A program made the translations under genes and the position numbers. The notes below the pieces were generated by a model, which had not been told where the DNA came from, ran no database searches, and saw only the letters and a list, made by a program, of their open reading frames with translations. 11,465 nt of DNA from a virus (Duplodnaviria > Heunggongvirae > Uroviricota > Caudoviricetes), in the IMG/VR virus record IMGVR_UViG_2534681766_000006; one strand, written 5' to 3'. Below are positions 3,965 through 11,465 of this stretch, in pieces. Positions within the stretch are counted from its first letter, which is position 1. Each line of letters opens with the position of its first letter.

Positions 3965-3979
3965 TTTGCTGCTCCTCAT

Positions 3980-4430
3980 CATATCGACCCTGCAAGGTCG
4001 GTTGGTTTCTCCACAAAACAGAGAAGAACACCTGCGGTGGCAGCCGCCCGGATGGATTGGGTTATGAGCCCGTCGTCCGGTGATGCTCTTCTCTGTTTTG
4101 CAAAAAAGGACGGTACCAGCCGGAAGCAAGGGTACAAACTGGTACCGCCAGGACTACACACAGCATAAAGTTGTGGTGCCGGGTGCCTCCCGGTGCCTGG
4201 CGAAGGTTGCACACCAGGCGGGGGGGTATCCACAGAAGGTCGACTGTCAGCCTCAACCTTAACCCGCGTGCGCTGAGCCGCATTCACCACAACGCTAAGG
4301 ATTCTCTCTGGTTGAAAATACTTAGCTGTTATGTGCCTGCTTTTAGCCACATCAGGCGAGGTGGACCTGGTTATTCCCCAACAACAAGGATTCGGTTAAT
4401 CTGGATATCCCCAACAACAATAAGAGTATT
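3980..4430. other. GC-rich, ORF-poor, inverted-repeat-rich region; candidate structured RNA or leader of the early-left operon, or long 5' region of the convergent moron
   Basis: 14-bp perfect inverted repeat CAAAACAGAGAAGA (4014-4027) / TCTTCTCTGTTTTG (4087-4100); 9-bp stem CGGTACCAG (4111-4119) / CTGGTACCG (4139-4147); further CCGGG/CCCGG and CCTGG/CCAGG pairs; ORFs here are Pro/Gly/Arg-rich and implausible. Confidence 0.35.
4375..4420 (+). repeat. Two copies of the direct repeat TCCCCAACAACAA (4375-4387 and 4408-4420), 33 bp apart, just upstream of the moron start
   Basis: Exact 13-mer duplication read directly; flanking TAT(T) also conserved; GGA motifs lie between the copies. Confidence 0.6.
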
Positions 4431-4458
4431 CAATGTGATCGCTGAATTAACGGCAGCA

Positions 4459-4950
4459 ATGACGGCTATTCGTGAAACAGCCCAGATTGCAAAACTAATG
4501 AACGAGGCAAAAACTCAAGCTGAAGTAAATGCGGCTATTGGTGAGCTGAACTCAAAGCTTGCGTCTATTCAGCGCGAATGCGTGTCTCTCGTTGAACTGG
4601 TGGGCTCTTATCAAGAAATAAATGCTTCTCTCAAAGCTAAAATTGCAGAATTCGAAAACTTTGAGGCTCAGACGGAAGGCTATATCCTTAACCAACTTGA
4701 GTCGGGTACTTTTGTATACTCGAAGGAGGTAATCGTGAACGGTGGCAGCATAACCATGCATCTTTGCCCAAAATGTTTTGGACAAAAGATAGTATCGATA
4801 CTTCAACCATTCCCGGTTAGCGAAGATGAGCTTTTTCATAAAAGCAGGTGCCTCCACTGTGAAAATAAGTTTCTGATGAATAAAAATCCGGATTACGTAT
4901 CGCCTCCATCCATTGAGGAGTTGTCCAGAAAACTTAACGGCAATCTGTAG
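4459..4950 (+). CDS. Hypothetical moron protein, 163 aa: N-terminal coiled-coil plus C-terminal C4 zinc ribbon (CPKC-x24-CLHC); function unknown
   Basis: Low-GC ORF (about 42% by eye) convergent with PL, followed by its own terminator. Start uncertain (ATG 4459 or GTG 4435, both with weak RBS); in-frame GTG 4735 has a perfect AAGGAGG SD 5 nt upstream. Confidence 0.65.
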   Translation: MTAIRETAQIAKLMNEAKTQAEVNAAIGELNSKLASIQRECVSLVELVGSYQEINASLKAKIAEFENFEAQTEGYILNQLESGTFVYSKEVIVNGGSITMHLCPKCFGQKIVSILQPFPVSEDELFHKSRCLHCENKFLMNKNPDYVSPPSIEELSRKLNGNL

Positions 4951-4988
4951 ATTACTACTGTTGTGGATATCCAGATTGTTAAAGAGCT

Positions 4989-5013
4989 AAGCGTCCTGTA
5001 GGGCGCTTTTTTG
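4989..5013 (+). terminator. Rho-independent terminator of the moron gene
   Basis: Stem GCGUCC / GGGCGC (one G-U pair), loop UGUA, followed by UUUUUU (5007-5012); weaker and without a U-tract in antisense. Confidence 0.6.
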
Positions 5014-5089: not shown

Positions 5090-5126
5090 TTGGGTACATT
5101 ATGTATCTCATAGGTACATTGTCAAG
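5090..5126 (-). promoter_or_regulatory. OL/PL-like region: sigma70 promoter reading leftward with overlapping operator repeats
   Basis: Minus strand TTGACA (plus 5120-5125), 17-nt spacer, ATAATG (plus 5097-5102). Operator-like GGTACAT motifs: GGTACATTATGTATC (includes palindrome TACATtATGTA) and GGTACATTGTCAAG. Confidence 0.6.
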
Positions 5127-5128
5127 TA

Positions 5129-5151
5129 TAAAAAAACCTGCCGAAGCAGGT
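5129..5151 (-). terminator. Rho-independent terminator downstream of cI
   Basis: Hairpin ACCTGC-cgaa-GCAGGT (5136-5151); minus-strand RNA follows it with UUUUUUUAU (plus A-run 5129-5135). Confidence 0.6.
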
Positions 5152-5164
5152 TCATAAACATTGA

Positions 5165-5839
5165 TTAGGCTTTGATTTTGTATCTTCTTGGTTTTCCTGA
5201 GAAAATCACAGTTCCAATTATAGAGCAATTACCGTTGATCTTAATGTAAGGCTCAGGCCAGTTTGGGTTTAACGCTTTGAGATAACGCTGTGTCCCATCT
5301 TCTATCAACCTTTTGAAGGTGGTTTCACCTGTATCGTGCATCAATGCAATAACGTCGTCACCGTGGCAGGCAGGTACTTCAGGATCGACAAAAATCATGT
5401 CTCCCGGGCGGTACTCATCAATCATTGAATCACCTATCACCCGCAAGATATAAGTCATTTCCCCACAGGGTACAGGGCAGGGATACGTTTCTGCTGTGCT
5501 CAAATCAACCTCAGAATATCCAACTTCTTTCCATGCTCCGGCCTGTACCCATGATATGACAGGGACTAATGTGATTTGTTTATTAGTGATTGAAACATCA
5601 GGTTTTTTTGTGATGTTCGTTGTCTGGTGTTCTTGATCGAGCCATCCGACAGGCAGGGCGAAACATTTTTCGATGTGTCGTGCCATGCTGTCACCGATAT
5701 TTTTAGTAGCACCATCTCCCATAAACCTGCTGGTCTGGGTTGGCTCGCGATCAATCATAGTGGCAAAGGAAGAATTCCCTCCAACACCATCTCTCAGTTT
5801 TCTGGCGTTAGACCGCCGGATGTCATGGATTGTTTTCAT
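5165..5839 (-). CDS. cI: CI-type prophage repressor with C-terminal S24 (LexA-like) autopeptidase domain, 224 aa
   Basis: C-terminal half aligns with P22 C2 (WVQAG.W, GDSM Ser nucleophile, TFKRL Lys, NGNCSIIG); ATG at 5837-5839 has essentially no SD, consistent with leaderless translation from PRM. Confidence 0.9.
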   Translation of the reverse strand: MKTIHDIRRSNARKLRDGVGGNSSFATMIDREPTQTSRFMGDGATKNIGDSMARHIEKCFALPVGWLDQEHQTTNITKKPDVSITNKQITLVPVISWVQAGAWKEVGYSEVDLSTAETYPCPVPCGEMTYILRVIGDSMIDEYRPGDMIFVDPEVPACHGDDVIALMHDTGETTFKRLIEDGTQRYLKALNPNWPEPYIKINGNCSIIGTVIFSGKPRRYKIKA

Positions 5840-5929
5840 AACGAAATTAAAACCCTTGTACCGTTAAGGTACAAGTATCTTGAAGGTTCATTTCAATCAT
5901 GTAATATGTACACCGGAGGTACATATTGT
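5840..5929. promoter_or_regulatory. OR region with divergent PRM (leftward) and PR (rightward) and palindromic operators
   Basis: Operators CTTGTACC-gttaa-GGTACAAG (5855-5875) and ATGTAC-accggag-GTACAT (5906-5924); PR TTGAAG (5880-5885), 16 nt, TAATAT (5902-5907); PRM on minus TTGTAC (plus 5869-5874), 17 nt, TTTAAT (plus 5846-5851). Confidence 0.6.
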
Positions 5930-7066: not shown

Positions 7067-7086
7067 AGGTCGGTCATGAGCACTAA
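6865..7086 (+). CDS. Hypothetical protein, probably the C-terminal part of the same gene as 6728..7066 (frame -1); the region [37 protein letters not shown] looks genuine
   Basis: Frame open from 6835; the listed start is GTG; stop overlaps the O-like start by 11 nt; one extra nucleotide near 6913-6917 would fuse the two ORFs (..CDK-VNRWF..). Confidence 0.4.
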
Positions 7087-8017
7087 ATTAACCGGCTATG
7101 TATGGGATGGTTGCGCAGCGTCAGGCATGAAATTATCCAGCGTGGCAATTATGGCCCGCCTGGCTGATTTCAGTAATGACGAAGGTGTGTGCTGGCCATC
7201 GATTGAAACCATTGCCCGCCAGATTGGCGCGGGGATGAGTACCGTCAGAACGGCTATCGCACGGCTGGAAGCAGAAGGCTGGTTAACGCGTAAGGCGCGT
7301 CGCCAGGGTAACCGCAATGCGTCGAATGTTTATCAGCTTAACGTTGCGAAGCTTCAGGCAGCGGCATTTTCTCAAGTGTCAGATTCTGACCCGTCAAAAT
7401 CTGACGCATCAAAATCTGACCCGTCAAAATTTGATGCGTCGAAATCTGGCAAAAAAGCGGGTTTTCACCCGTCAGAATCTGGCGGGGATCCGTCAGTAAA
7501 ATCAAAACATGATCCGTCAGATAAAAAACCTTCTCGTCCGGACTCTTCGCAACCGGACACGCAGACGGCTGAACAGGATTTTTTAACTCGCCATCCTGAT
7601 GCGGTTGTATTCAGCCCTAAAAAGCGCCAGTGGGGGACGCAGGATGATTTGACCTGCGCACAGTGGCTCTGGAAAAAAATCATCGCCCTGTACGAGCATG
7701 CCGCCGAATGTGACGGCGAGGTGGTTCGTCCCAAAGAACCGAACTGGACAGCCTGGGCAAACGAAATTCGCCTGATGTGTGTGCAGGATGGTCGTACTCA
7801 TAAACAAATCTGCGAGATGTACAGCCGCGTCAGTCGCGATCCGTTCTGGTGCCGTAACGTGCTCAGCCCGTCGAAGCTGCGGGAAAAATGGGATGAGCTT
7901 TCCCTGCGCTTATCGCCGTCCGTCAGCACGTACACCGAAAAACGCGAAGACCCGTACTTCAAAGCCAGTTACGACAACGTGGACTACAGCCAGATCCCGG
8001 CAGGATTCAGGGGGTGA
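7076..8017 (+). CDS. Replication initiation protein: O-like N-terminal HTH, iteron-encoded Ser/Asp/Lys linker, DnaT-like C-terminal domain; 313 aa
   Basis: N-terminus has an HTH (TVRTAIARLEAEGWL); the C-terminus ..DYSQIPAGFRG resembles the E. coli DnaT C-terminus (..SEPDSQIPPGFRG, recalled); GAGGT RBS 5 nt upstream. Confidence 0.85.
   Translation: MSTKLTGYVWDGCAASGMKLSSVAIMARLADFSNDEGVCWPSIETIARQIGAGMSTVRTAIARLEAEGWLTRKARRQGNRNASNVYQLNVAKLQAAAFSQVSDSDPSKSDASKSDPSKFDASKSGKKAGFHPSESGGDPSVKSKHDPSDKKPSRPDSSQPDTQTAEQDFLTRHPDAVVFSPKKRQWGTQDDLTCAQWLWKKIIALYEHAAECDGEVVRPKEPNWTAWANEIRLMCVQDGRTHKQICEMYSRVSRDPFWCRNVLSPSKLREKWDELSLRLSPSVSTYTEKREDPYFKASYDNVDYSQIPAGFRG
7383..7520 (+). repeat. Origin-of-replication iterons inside the initiator gene: four 15-16-bp repeats (ATYTGAC[C/G]C[G/A]TCAAA), then CCGTCAG repeats and an A-rich tract
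   Basis: Repeats at 7383-7398, 7399-7413, 7414-7428, 7429-7444; CCGTCAG at 7468-7474, 7490-7496, 7513-7519; AAAAAA at 7450-7456 and 7522-7527; classic lambdoid ori-in-O arrangement. Confidence 0.65.
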
Positions 8018-9161: not shown

Positions 9162-9484
9162 CGACGTTAACTCAATGCCAGCAGCAGGGGCTGGATATGC
9201 TGATTTCTTACCAGCAAGAACGTGGCTTTCCGCCAACCAATCAGGAGGTGGCAACCATGCTGGGATACCGTTCGGTGAATGCAGCGGTGGAGCATCTTCG
9301 CGCACTGGAGAAAAAAGGCGTCATCACGATAAAGCGTGGCGTGGCCCGGGGGATAACTCTTCATACCGCGGTGAAGGACGACGACAGCGAGGCGGTCGGG
9401 ATTATCCGCGCACTGCTTGCCGGTGAGGAAAACGCCAGGCTGCGTGCAGCCCACTGGTTACATGAGAGGGGCCTGAAAGTATGA
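9158..9484 (+). CDS. LexA N-terminal DNA-binding-domain homolog lacking the S24 peptidase domain, 108 aa
   Basis: LTQCQQQGLDMLISYQQERGFPPTNQEVATMLGYRSVNAAVEHLRALEKKGVITI aligns at roughly 40-45% identity by eye with E. coli LexA residues ~4-70; no Ser/Lys catalytic domain; ATGA coupling to Dam. Confidence 0.8.
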   Translation: MTTLTQCQQQGLDMLISYQQERGFPPTNQEVATMLGYRSVNAAVEHLRALEKKGVITIKRGVARGITLHTAVKDDDSEAVGIIRALLAGEENARLRAAHWLHERGLKV

Positions 9485-9777
9485 AGCTGATCTTGCCTTT
9501 CCCTCCCAGCGTGAACACGTACTGGCGACACCCCAACAAAGGGGCGTTTGCTGGTAAGAGTCTGATAAGCGCAGCGGGGCGCAAATTCCAGAGCGCGGCG
9601 TGCGCAGCAATAGTTGAGCAGTTACGTCGTCTGCCGAAACCAACGTCGGCACCTGCTTCAGTGGAGATCGTGTTGTTTCCTCCGGATACCGTGGCATTTG
9701 AAGAGAAGTATGGCTCCCAGCTGGAGCTGATATTTCGTTTTATCGATCGCGCACTGGCGATTGGTGTGCTGGCCTGA
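9481..9777 (+). CDS. RusA-family (Holliday-junction resolvase)-like protein, 98 aa, with divergent or shortened C-terminal half
   Basis: N-terminus [13 protein letters not shown] matches RusA LPWPPS.N.YYRH, and ..VEIVLFPPD matches ..IECHMPD; the Asp-rich catalytic segment (RRRRDLDN.. in RusA, recalled) is not recognisable. Confidence 0.6.
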
Positions 9778-9794
9778 TTTTGTGGAGAAAGTTA

Positions 9795-10178
9795 ATGCGT
9801 GATATTCAGATGGTTCTTGAACGTTGGGGAGCGTGGGCGGCTAATAATCATGAAGATGTGACCTGGTCGTCCATTGCCGCCGGTTTTAAGGGATTAATTC
9901 CTTCAAAAGTAAAATCTCGCCCGCAATGTTGTGACGATGACGCGATGATCATTTGCGGGTGCATGGCCCGTCTGAAAAAGAACAACAGCGATTTGCACGA
10001 TTTATTAGTAGATTATTATGTAGTCGGTATGACATTCATGTCACTGGCAGGTAAGCATTGCTGCTCTGATGGTTATATCGGGAAAAGGTTACAGAAGGCT
10101 GAGGGCATAATTGAAGGGATGTTAATGGCATTAGATATCCGGTTAGAGATGGATATCGTTGTTAATAACTCTAATTAA
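9795..10178 (+). CDS. Q: Late-gene antiterminator Q (small DLP12 QuuD-like type), 127 aa
   Basis: Start ATG 9795 with GGAG SD (the track's TTG 9780 is rejected); Cys-rich (CCDDD..CGC..CC); position immediately upstream of the nmpC-type porin as in DLP12. Confidence 0.75.
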
Positions 10179-10367: not shown

Positions 10368-11465
10368 TTAGAACTGGTAAACCAGACCTACAGCAACGAT
10401 GTCATCAGTGCTTACACCGAGTGCTTTAGTGAAGTCATTTTTGTCAAGCAGGTTGATTTTGTAATCAACGAAAGTAGACATATTTTTGTTGAAGTAATAG
10501 GTTGCACCTACATCAACATATTTGACTAAGTCCTGATCGCCCCATACTCCAAGATCCTTACCTTTAGATTGCAGGTAAGCAACGGACGGACGCAGACCGA
10601 AATCGAACTGATATTGTGCAACAGCTTCGAAGTTTTGAGCTTTATTAGCAACGAAGTGATCAGCAAATACAGTCATATTCTGGGTTTCAGAATAGGTAGT
10701 GGCCAGGTAAATGTTGTTAGCGTCATATTTCAGACCTGCGGCCCAAACTTCTGCATTTTTACCGGAAGCAAATACTTCAGGAAGAACTTTCCCTGCATTA
10801 ACTTGAGTGTCGGTACGATCAGATTTCGCATAAGTTGCACCGATACCGAATCCTTCGTATTCATAGGTAGCAGAGAAACCGAAGCCATCACCGTTACCTT
10901 CGGTGTAGTTATCGAAATCGCTACGATCGTTTTTGCCTTGGTACTGAGCAGCAAAGTTCAGACCATCAACCAGACCAAAGAAGTCGTTGTTACGATAGGT
11001 TGCAACACCAGTGGTGCGACCAGTCATGAACACATCTGTTTGGGTCCAGGTATCGCCACCGAATTCTGGCAGAACGTCAGTCCACGCACCGATGTCGTAT
11101 GCTACACCGTAGTTACGGCCGTAATCGATTGAGCCGTAGTCACCGAATTTCAGGCCTGCAAATGCAAGACGGGTTTTGTCTTTGGAGGAACCTTGAGATT
11201 CAGCGCGGTTGCCTTTGAATTCATATTCCCACTGACCGAAACCAGTCAGCTGATCGTTGATTTGGGTTTCGCCTTTGAAGCCCAGACGAACATAAGTAGT
11301 ATCACCATCATCTGCATCGTTAGAGGAAAAGTAGTGCTTGGCATTAACTTTCCCGTACAGATCCAGCTTGTTACTGTCTTTATTATAAATTTCAGCTGCC
11401 TGAGCAGACATCGCCATCAGTACTGATGCAGCTACAGCAGAAATTGCCACTGTTAATTTTTTCAT
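10368..11465 (-). CDS. nmpC: Outer-membrane general porin of the OmpC/OmpF family (prophage NmpC/Lc type), 365 aa, complete
   Basis: Signal peptide [38 protein letters not shown] start, C-terminal ..VGLVYQF; start codon at the window end (11463-11465), so the promoter is outside the window. Confidence 0.93.

Follow-up and report, generated by a model that had tools for sequence, protein, structure and literature searches.

The stretch of DNA analysed here (the window: 11,465 nucleotides (nt) of the Caudoviricetes record IMGVR_UViG_2534681766_000006 in IMG/VR) is a lambdoid Escherichia coli prophage at the argU/intD integration site. Its gene of interest is a rightward open reading frame (ORF) at 4435-4950, beside the immunity region, whose product is related in sequence and predicted fold to the abortive-infection protein Rip1. 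The genes to the left of the ORF are read leftward, in the order intD, an xis remnant, yfdT, yfdR, yfdQ, yfdP and a frameshifted ORF. To its right, a leftward repressor gene is followed by a cro-like gene, ymfL and replication genes, and then by genes that encode a Dam methylase, RusA, an antiterminator of the Q type and a porin.

As a first-pass annotation of this DNA had noted, the ORF lies on the plus strand, opposite to transcription from the leftward promoter PL; its frame closes at TAG 4948-4950. The length of 163 amino acids (aa) given there was counted from an internal ATG at 4459, and has to be corrected to 171 aa from GTG 4435, the codon at which the aligned relatives all open with MIAELSAAM. 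The product is identical to RefSeq WP_000559922.1 (516 bp, annotated 'hypothetical protein'). Exactly this allele is carried by 373 complete E. coli genomes, and a tblastn search of phage genomes finds identical copies in the inducible E. coli phages PhiR49_1 and PhiR29_2. With a GC content of 42.8%, the ORF is AT-richer than the DNA to its left (52.9% GC) and than the window as a whole (48.2%), as had been claimed, but the claim does not extend to its right-hand neighbour (44.6%). The gene and the two parts of its product are as follows.

4435-4950, plus strand: Rip1-family gene, 171 aa (start codon from relatives; PHROG 1244; homology to HK446 Rip1/PDB 9oox; model and fold match)
4438-4671, plus strand: N-terminal helical half, residues 2-24 and 28-79 (DSSP on the model; hydrophobic moment; role of the N-terminal helix of Rip1)
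4684-4884, plus strand: C-terminal β-rich, zinc-ribbon-like domain, residues 84-150 (cysteine motifs; model; ring contact of the Rip1 C-terminal part)

Relationship to Rip1

Scans of the ORF protein against Pfam, NCBIfam and PADLOC gave nothing significant and returned sub-threshold coiled-coil noise alone, and the protein falls in PHROG 1244, a group of unknown function (E=2.4e-58). Among phage genomes, tblastn retrieved relatives of 48% identity in Klebsiella phages and of about 30% identity in HK620, HK630 and HK629 (HkaP), as well as in the Pseudomonas Mu-like phages DMS3, JBD30 and D3112 (orf25). A database search yielded 123 relatives from Enterobacterales, every one labelled hypothetical. 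The relatives are 150-175 aa long, and an exhaustive profile search puts the family at 2802 representative clusters (E<=1e-3).

Rip1 is said to have its primary description in Patel, McCarthy, Taylor et al. (Nature 2026, 651:1060), who reportedly observed early lysis of infected cells. We built a family profile and an AlphaFold2 model on an alignment of 51 relatives of the ORF protein. The profile matches PDB chain 9oox_L, 'ring interacting pore 1 (Rip1)', with E=1.4e-20 (profile positions 5-151, chain positions 15-160), the single ORF sequence matches 9oox Rip1 with E=2.7e-7, and a BLASTP alignment with the full HK446 Rip1 extends over 148 aa at 27% identity (E=4e-11). JBD30 gp30 (E=1.5e-19) and HK620 HkaP (E=2.4e-10) also match 9oox Rip1. 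This entry is a cryo-electron microscopy (cryo-EM) structure of Rip1 of Escherichia phage HK446 with the small terminase of phage T6. A Foldseek search of the PDB with the model (mean predicted local distance difference test score 91.1) returned two chains only at E<=1e-3, 9oox_L and 9oox_M, with a probability of 1.00, target-normalised template modelling scores of 0.53-0.72 and 28% identity.

Since the ORF protein confidently matches Rip1, the kind of system to which it belongs is already known: judged by sequence and modelled fold, the ORF is an uncharacterised member of the Rip1 family, the characterisation of which dates from 2026. The first-pass annotation had recognised no family and had called for profile and structure searches. 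These gave the confident match to the characterised Rip1 family, besides that to PHROG 1244, and the novelty claimed for the protein is thereby lost, whereas the functional class proposed for it is confirmed. In particular, the guess that the ORF is an anti-phage or abortive-infection gene gains support from the Rip1 homology in sequence and fold, and from the identical placement of rip1 in HK446.

In the confident model, the N-terminal half consists of the long helices 2-24 and 28-79, the best heptad register of which has 71% hydrophobic residues at the a and d positions, in agreement with the coiled coil that had been read from the sequence. The helical hydrophobic moment (muH) reaches 0.44, the corresponding values being 0.38 for HK446 Rip1, 0.36 for gp30 and 0.48 for HkaP. 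No transmembrane segment was detected in the ORF protein, its highest 19-residue Kyte-Doolittle mean being 0.85. By the calculated helices and moment, the protein has the N-terminal amphipathic helical region of Rip1, here of moderate amphipathicity, and the N-terminal helices are its predicted membrane-active, pore-lining part.

The C-terminal domain carries CPKC (4765-4776) and, 24 residues further on, CLHC (4849-4860), exactly as described earlier, and has a β-hairpin 'knuckle' topology in the model. Ten residues are invariant in the 51 aligned relatives, Cys111, Cys114, Cys139 and Cys142 among them; because all four cysteines are invariant in this set, the sequence comparison indicates that the four-Cys motif is not a chance occurrence. 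About 100 full-length relatives keep the pattern C-x2-C...(S/T)ILQP...C-x2-C, as do HkaP and JBD30 gp30. The four cysteines also align with cysteines of HK446 Rip1, in which the proline of the ILQP motif is replaced (SILQY). Conservation and model thus give the ORF protein the C-terminal four-Cys domain typical of Rip1, and we predict this domain to be the ring-contacting sensor. The segment between the two CxxC pairs varies among the relatives in sequence and in length (24 to 33 residues), and the N-terminal half is better conserved than this segment, which in our view would fit a variable recognition surface. The enterobacterial branch, with its diversity between the Cys pairs, would offer a natural panel for how ring-recognition specificity evolves.

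The other hallmarks of the Rip1 family that can be read from sequence, model and layout are present as well. The similarity to the characterised member extends over the full length, and the fold is shared with the solved subunit. Rip1 systems are small and consist of a single protein of about 150-175 aa; here, the 171-aa product is encoded by a lone ORF, with no partner gene between leader and terminator. The gene is prophage-encoded and set against the lytic operon, and its own terminator and the convergent PL mark it as autonomous, although a promoter of its own was not identified. WP_000559922.1 and its relatives, PHROG 1244 ('unknown function') and HkaP ('putative superinfection exclusion protein') can, on the strength of this homology, now be labelled Rip1-family pore-forming abortive-infection proteins.

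A conserved cassette and its alternative cargos

The ORF is enclosed by conserved elements, which together delimit a cassette.

4335-4434, plus strand: conserved leader of about 100 nt, with an abrupt start at GCCTG(T)CTTTT and an end at the Shine-Dalgarno-like AAGAG (4422-4426)
4375-4420, plus strand: 13-nt direct repeat TCCCCAACAACAA within the leader, in two copies (4375-4387 and 4408-4420), conserved across genera
4398-4423, plus strand: left arm of an inverted repeat, AATCTGGATATCCCCAACAACAATAA, ending 12 nt before the start codon
4952-4977, plus strand: right arm of the inverted repeat, TTACTACTGTTGTGGATATCCAGATT, starting 2 nt after the stop codon
4978-5014, plus strand: conserved 3' block GTTAAAGAGC with an intrinsic terminator (stem 4989-5008, T-run), the right end of the cassette

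The plus-strand terminator had already been attributed to the gene, and the intrinsic stem with the T-run after it bears this out. The arms of the inverted repeat are 26 nt long and 85% complementary, and the same arms bracket relatives of the gene in Salmonella, Citrobacter and about ten more genera. We aligned the flanks of 18 loci from 14 genera, retrieved by protein similarity. The leader is nearly invariant in 17 of the 18, and the sequence farther upstream is unrelated; on the 3' side, conservation comprises the right arm, GTTAAAGAGC and the terminator and stops past the T-run, beyond which the sequences are again unrelated. Compared with the window, the leader has a median identity of 86%, the coding DNA of 64% and the protein of 52%; unrelated upstream DNA reaches about 50%. 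The flanks are thus far better conserved than the protein, and where the gene enters a different operon, they go with it. Of 5426 complete E. coli genomes, 1413 (26%) contain the leader and none has it annotated, and Rfam holds no family that matches it.

In the leader, neither a consensus scan nor a position weight matrix (PWM) scan gave a convincing sigma-70 promoter (best 4.7-5.8 bits), and by eye there is no fit to the consensus of sigma-32, sigma-E or sigma-54. Judged likewise by eye, the region 4375-4420 of the leader shows a stretch that resembles the binding consensus of CsrA (ACAAGGAUU; motif ACAAGGAU) and (AAC)n runs that resemble the ARN motifs of Hfq.

In the predicted mRNA, the two arms pair and close off the coding region in the minimum free energy fold and in the centroid fold alike (z=-2.5). 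The arms are highly conserved. The changes seen in three loci (L021, L025 and L026) are single and not compensatory, and in Izhakiella (L020) one change, from A-U to G-C, is by our own reading perhaps compensatory. Through such a long stem between the 5' and 3' sides of the mRNA, the inverted repeat might act as an element for RNase III or for stability.

IMG/VR has 111 contigs with a 22-mer taken from the leader, and 80 viral loci fetched with it served for a survey of cargos. A Rip1-type ORF begins 17-20 nt downstream of the leader in 60 of these loci, and most of the other 20 hold one of two further cargo types. The first is an unrelated protein of about 145-151 aa that belongs to PHROG 5286 and is named 'ECs1072 family phage-associated protein' in RefSeq (loci L030, L040, L060, L070, L075 and L086; L143, 2300-2734; L141, 2600-3034, SfIV_36); in one annotated example it is accompanied by a small convergent ORF. 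In SfIV and in E. coli L3452210II, the very slot of the window (yfdP, frameshifted ORF, cassette, repressor) is occupied by this ECs1072-type cargo behind the same leader. The second type consists of a proline-rich peptide of 25-33 aa (...DYEERHMPPFKRPEPPPKPDD...) and, 3-9 nt on, a PHROG 6315 protein of 150-162 aa and unknown function with two predicted hydrophobic helices (loci L038, L051, L057, L058, L061, L065, L067, L087, L094 and L106). The PHROG 6315 cargo has a faint match to the PADLOC '4TM effector' (E=0.008); neither of the alternative cargos could be identified in Pfam or PADLOC. The block GTTAAAGA again closes several of the other-cargo cassettes, both types included. The leader also stands before a further Rip1 relative of 171 aa in O157:H7, in an immunity region of the RacR type.

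We regard the ECs1072/PHROG 5286 protein and the PHROG 6315 protein with its leader peptide as candidate defence families. The leader, behind which one slot takes different cargos, may mark a hotspot of defence genes that share a regulatory element. More tentatively, we suggest that these elements make up a functional, previously undescribed and portable 'defence cassette' of enterobacterial prophages, in which the leader, an inverted repeat of 19-26 nt around any cargo and a shared terminator belong together and would drive at least three unrelated cargos, although we hold this to be somewhat less probable than its opposite. Our working view is that the conserved ends serve the exchange of cargos by recombination as well as a shared post-transcriptional or regulator-dependent control. 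If this is true, the cargos would be under a common regulation that is not obviously sigma-70-dependent, and the leader could be used as a bait for new prophage defence genes.

Two other accounts of the repeats were considered and rejected. For an invertible segment, no flipped ORF was noticed among the 80 viral leader loci, an observation that did not include an explicit search for inverted rip1 copies; the ORF beside the leader is Rip1-like in the 60 loci already mentioned and a different, forward-reading cargo in about 16 of the remaining 20. The leader stands upstream of the gene and on the same strand in all 17 protein-retrieved loci that have it, and the arms do not resemble the hix/gix consensus. 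As to an integron cassette, the core sites of attC, RYYYAAC...GTTRRRY, lie downstream of the cassette ORF. In the window, CCCCAAC stands before the ORF and GTTGTGG after it, the reverse of the integron order, and neither is exact to the consensus.

Immunity region and remaining features of the window

To the right of the cassette, the signals of the immunity region are arranged as follows.

5098-5125, minus strand: PL-like promoter TTGACA-16-CATAAT, reading leftward into the ORF and antisense to it (consensus and PWM scans)
5101-5119: operator palindrome of the OL side, ATGTACC-N5-GATACAT, in and around the spacer of the PL-like promoter
5134-5153, minus strand: terminator closing the repressor transcript
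5165-5839, minus strand: prophage repressor of the S24/LexA family, ymfK-like (context, outside the cassette)
5856-5874 and 5906-5924, plus strand: operators of the OR side, TTGTACC-N5-GGTACAA and ATGTACA-N5-GGTACAT, between the repressor and cro-like genes, upstream of the latter

The strong PL-like promoter matches the consensus at 11 of 12 positions, scores 13 bits in the PWM scan and lies about 85 bp from the ORF; an additional ATGTACC is found at 5093-5099. The OL/PL assignment is credible, because the operator palindrome recurs twice between the repressor and cro-like genes. The statement that the ORF adjoins OL/PL is accordingly upheld, with the promoter at 5125-5098 and its palindrome repeated on the OR side. 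Its further description as standing where the N gene would be is correct as to position; no gene lies between PL and the ORF, however, and in HK446 and HK620 the homologue coexists with N and is found just beyond it. In 38 viral loci, a relative of the repressor, encoded on the minus strand, comes immediately after the cassette.

Between PL and the ORF, the scan detected no terminator on the minus strand. Read-through from PL, running antisense to the gene and coupling its expression to the lysogenic state, as had been proposed, fits this geometry, and convergent transcription from PL on induction of the prophage could lower expression of the ORF.

Of 45 viral loci that hold a Rip-type cassette, 36 have a gene of the opposite strand on either side of it. 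A 75%-identical relative in a Salmonella prophage lies antisense between cro and replication genes, and in Citrobacter a relative is found between xis and the repressor. The arrangement of the ORF in the window matches this habit of the family and differs in that no gene, and hence no N, separates it from PL.

The first leftward ORF past the cassette (3979-4350, minus strand) lies in a stretch of 55-56% GC and is a frameshifted pseudogene in the RefSeq annotation of two related genomes; in SfIV, one 226-aa ORF is annotated across the region of this ORF and the yfdP-like gene. Within the replication gene at 7076-8017, a 15-nt unit, TCTGACCCGTCAAAA, is repeated in tandem about four times at positions 7385-7448, which gives the O-like replication protein its repetitive SKSDPSK... 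stretch. The copies probably serve as iterons of an origin that, as in lambda, lies within the initiator gene. The RusA-like ORF (9481-9777) has 98 aa, compared with 129 aa in a related genome, and is directly followed by the Q-type antiterminator gene (9780-10178), a boundary that looks like a mosaic junction truncating or replacing the RusA C-terminus. Downstream of Q, a gene for an OmpC/NmpC-like porin of 365 aa (10368-11465, minus strand) reaches the window edge. Its position is a classic lambdoid moron site, as for nmpC in DLP12.

Proposed mode of action and comparison with known systems

Section 5 of a 2026 review (PMC13434031, on Patel et al., Nature 651:1060) gives the following account of Rip1. 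It is a prophage protein sited between the terminase genes of a Pseudomonas prophage, which guards against superinfection and is not toxic alone; infected cells that contain it round up. Escape mutations fall in the portal for phages of Pseudomonas and in the small terminase for those of E. coli. By cryo-EM, 12 Rip1 subunits surround an 11-mer ring of small terminase, the N-terminal part being an amphipathic helix and the C-terminal half touching the ring. The complex is a pore, as seen from dye release by liposomes and from punctured cells, and homologues are described as widespread in proteobacteria, chiefly in prophages. What a meeting report (PMC12908700) relates of the mechanism agrees with this section.

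On the basis of the homology, we consider it quite probable that the ORF protein is a single-protein abortive-infection defence of the Rip1 family and works like Rip1. It would be made in the lysogen and be harmless alone. Once a superinfecting phage reaches late gene expression, its small terminase or portal rings would act as the trigger; the C-terminal four-Cys β-domain would dock around such a ring, and the N-terminal amphipathic helices of about 12 subunits would then build a pore in the inner membrane. The cell would be permeabilised or lysed before progeny are completed. On induction of the prophage itself, derepressed early-left transcription would cross the gene antisense and could damp its expression.

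Directly established are the sequence and fold homology, the genomic layout, the fact that the defining residues are retained, and the signals for promoter, operators and terminators. We judge the homology to be solid and an equivalent function likely at 27-28% identity. Several points nevertheless weigh against a Rip1-like action. The same 27-28% identity is to the sole structurally characterised member, and trigger specificity, or even activity, may differ; the close relatives of the ORF protein are all annotated 'hypothetical', and its zinc binding and oligomerisation are predictions only. Because consensus and PWM scans gave no convincing sigma-70 promoter upstream of the ORF, we only infer its expression in the lysogen. 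The Rip1 mechanism itself is taken from the review PMC13434031 and the meeting report PMC12908700. Lastly, a secondary source describes the relative JBD30 gp30 as blocking genome injection, a mechanism unlike pore-mediated abortive infection.

The last point leads to the main rival, classical superinfection exclusion (Sie), in which the ORF protein would block the entry or injection of phage DNA as a functional analogue of SieB or other Sie proteins. The ORF occupies the slot that is taken by sieB in lambda and P22. In the HK620 record, hkaP bears the label 'putative superinfection exclusion protein', and the JBD30 structure paper with its Appendix Table has gp30 among the morons, with the entry 'blocks phage genome injection' and a reference to Tsao et al. 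2018. We reject the HK620 label as evidence, as it is positional, and the statement on gp30 is second-hand. At E<=1, Pfam links the ORF protein neither to SieB nor to another Sie family, and PADLOC gives no match; the protein also lacks a transmembrane segment, whereas entry-blocking Sie proteins are typically membrane proteins. Moreover, its solved homologue binds the small terminase, a late cytoplasmic protein, and Rip1 escapers in portal or small terminase, as reported in the review section, point to late sensing. Exclusion fits poorly with a soluble-type protein, and we consider it improbable. A literature search on HkaP returned unrelated papers only. From the Pseudomonas literature, Zip (JBD26 gp61), PlzR (PA2560) and the overlapping exclusion genes of Fc02 were considered and set aside, since both the proteins and the loci are others.

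Transcription and translation factors commonly contain zinc ribbons, the ORF protein resembles RNA polymerase subunit P weakly and below the threshold (E=0.02), and its gene directly adjoins the immunity region. It might therefore be a nucleic-acid-binding regulator of its own prophage, acting on early-left transcription or on the maintenance of lysogeny, with a coiled coil that only dimerises. Yet all regulator-type matches lie far under the curated cut-offs, and the one match in full-length sequence and fold is Rip1. Genes of the family are also found in unrelated positions, in Salmonella on the PR side and in Mu-like phages of Pseudomonas between the terminase genes, and they swap with unrelated cargo at the same slot, as expected of an accessory gene and not of a core regulator; we regard a regulatory role as very unlikely. 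That the ORF is a decaying or silent passenger without current function, to which the lack of a recognisable sigma-70 promoter, the frameshift in the neighbouring leftward gene and the partial degradation of many prophages at the same site might point, is scarcely credible for a full-length gene that has all ten invariant family residues, is identical in the inducible phages PhiR49_1 and PhiR29_2, has flanks conserved more strongly than random DNA and belongs to a family whose amino-acid conservation spans genera.

Taking the Rip1-like defence as the preferred reading, we compared the ORF with known systems, foremost with HK446 Rip1. The two proteins are similar in length (164 aa in HK446, 171 aa here) and in build, with N-terminal long helices and a C-terminal β-domain with C-x2-C...(S/T)ILQ...C-x2-C. 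HK446 rip1 (HK446_037) is likewise a plus-strand gene, antisense in the leftward PL operon and near the immunity region, where it abuts the 3' end of N. The differences are the identity of 27-28%, the retention of N between PL and rip1 in HK446, whereas in the window the ORF directly follows PL, and the absence from HK446 rip1 of the conserved leader and inverted-repeat cassette. HkaP of HK620, HK630 and HK629 belongs to the same family and occupies the same antisense slot of the PL operon, but stands between cIII and hkaQ/N, lacks the shared leader and owes its exclusion annotation to position only. About 110 nt upstream of HK446 rip1 and HK620 hkaP, we noticed an identical 22-nt hairpin-forming inverted repeat (L005, 3307-3354; L002, 3825-3872), although the proteins differ; it may be a separate conserved upstream element of this branch of the family.

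JBD30 gp30 and the related Rip1-type genes of Pseudomonas Casadabanvirus prophages (DMS3, D3112 orf25, MP38 ORF25) are members of the same family with about 30% identity, and gp30, too, is a single antisense gene set in a lytic operon. Unlike the ORF, it lies in the late operon, between a small-terminase-like gene and terL, and not beside the repressor. The Pseudomonas Rip1-type system further differs in its escapers, which according to the section on Rip1 in PMC13434031 map to the portal and not to the small terminase. Tab, of the Tab/anti-Tab pair of JBD26, sits in the inter-terminase slot that gp30 occupies in JBD30 and is thus an alternative defence cargo, in parallel to the cargos behind the leader; it is unrelated in sequence to the Rip1 family and blocks tail assembly.

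SieB of lambda and P22 and RexAB of lambda, to which the first-pass annotation had pointed for comparison, are exclusion or abortive-infection functions that are expressed in the lysogen and encoded beside the immunity region. SieB is a membrane protein without sequence relation to the ORF protein, which is of a soluble type; no SieB match was obtained with Pfam, NCBIfam or PADLOC, and no hydrophobic segment was found (Kyte-Doolittle maximum 0.85, as above). RexAB is a two-protein system encoded by co-transcribed genes downstream of cI, whereas the ORF stands alone, on the other strand from the repressor gene, and its product has no sequence relation to RexAB. Defence hotspots of P2 and P4 prophages were reportedly described by Rousset et al. 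in 2022. The hotspot of the window differs from these in being defined by a leader, an inverted repeat and a terminator, and not by conserved flanking genes.

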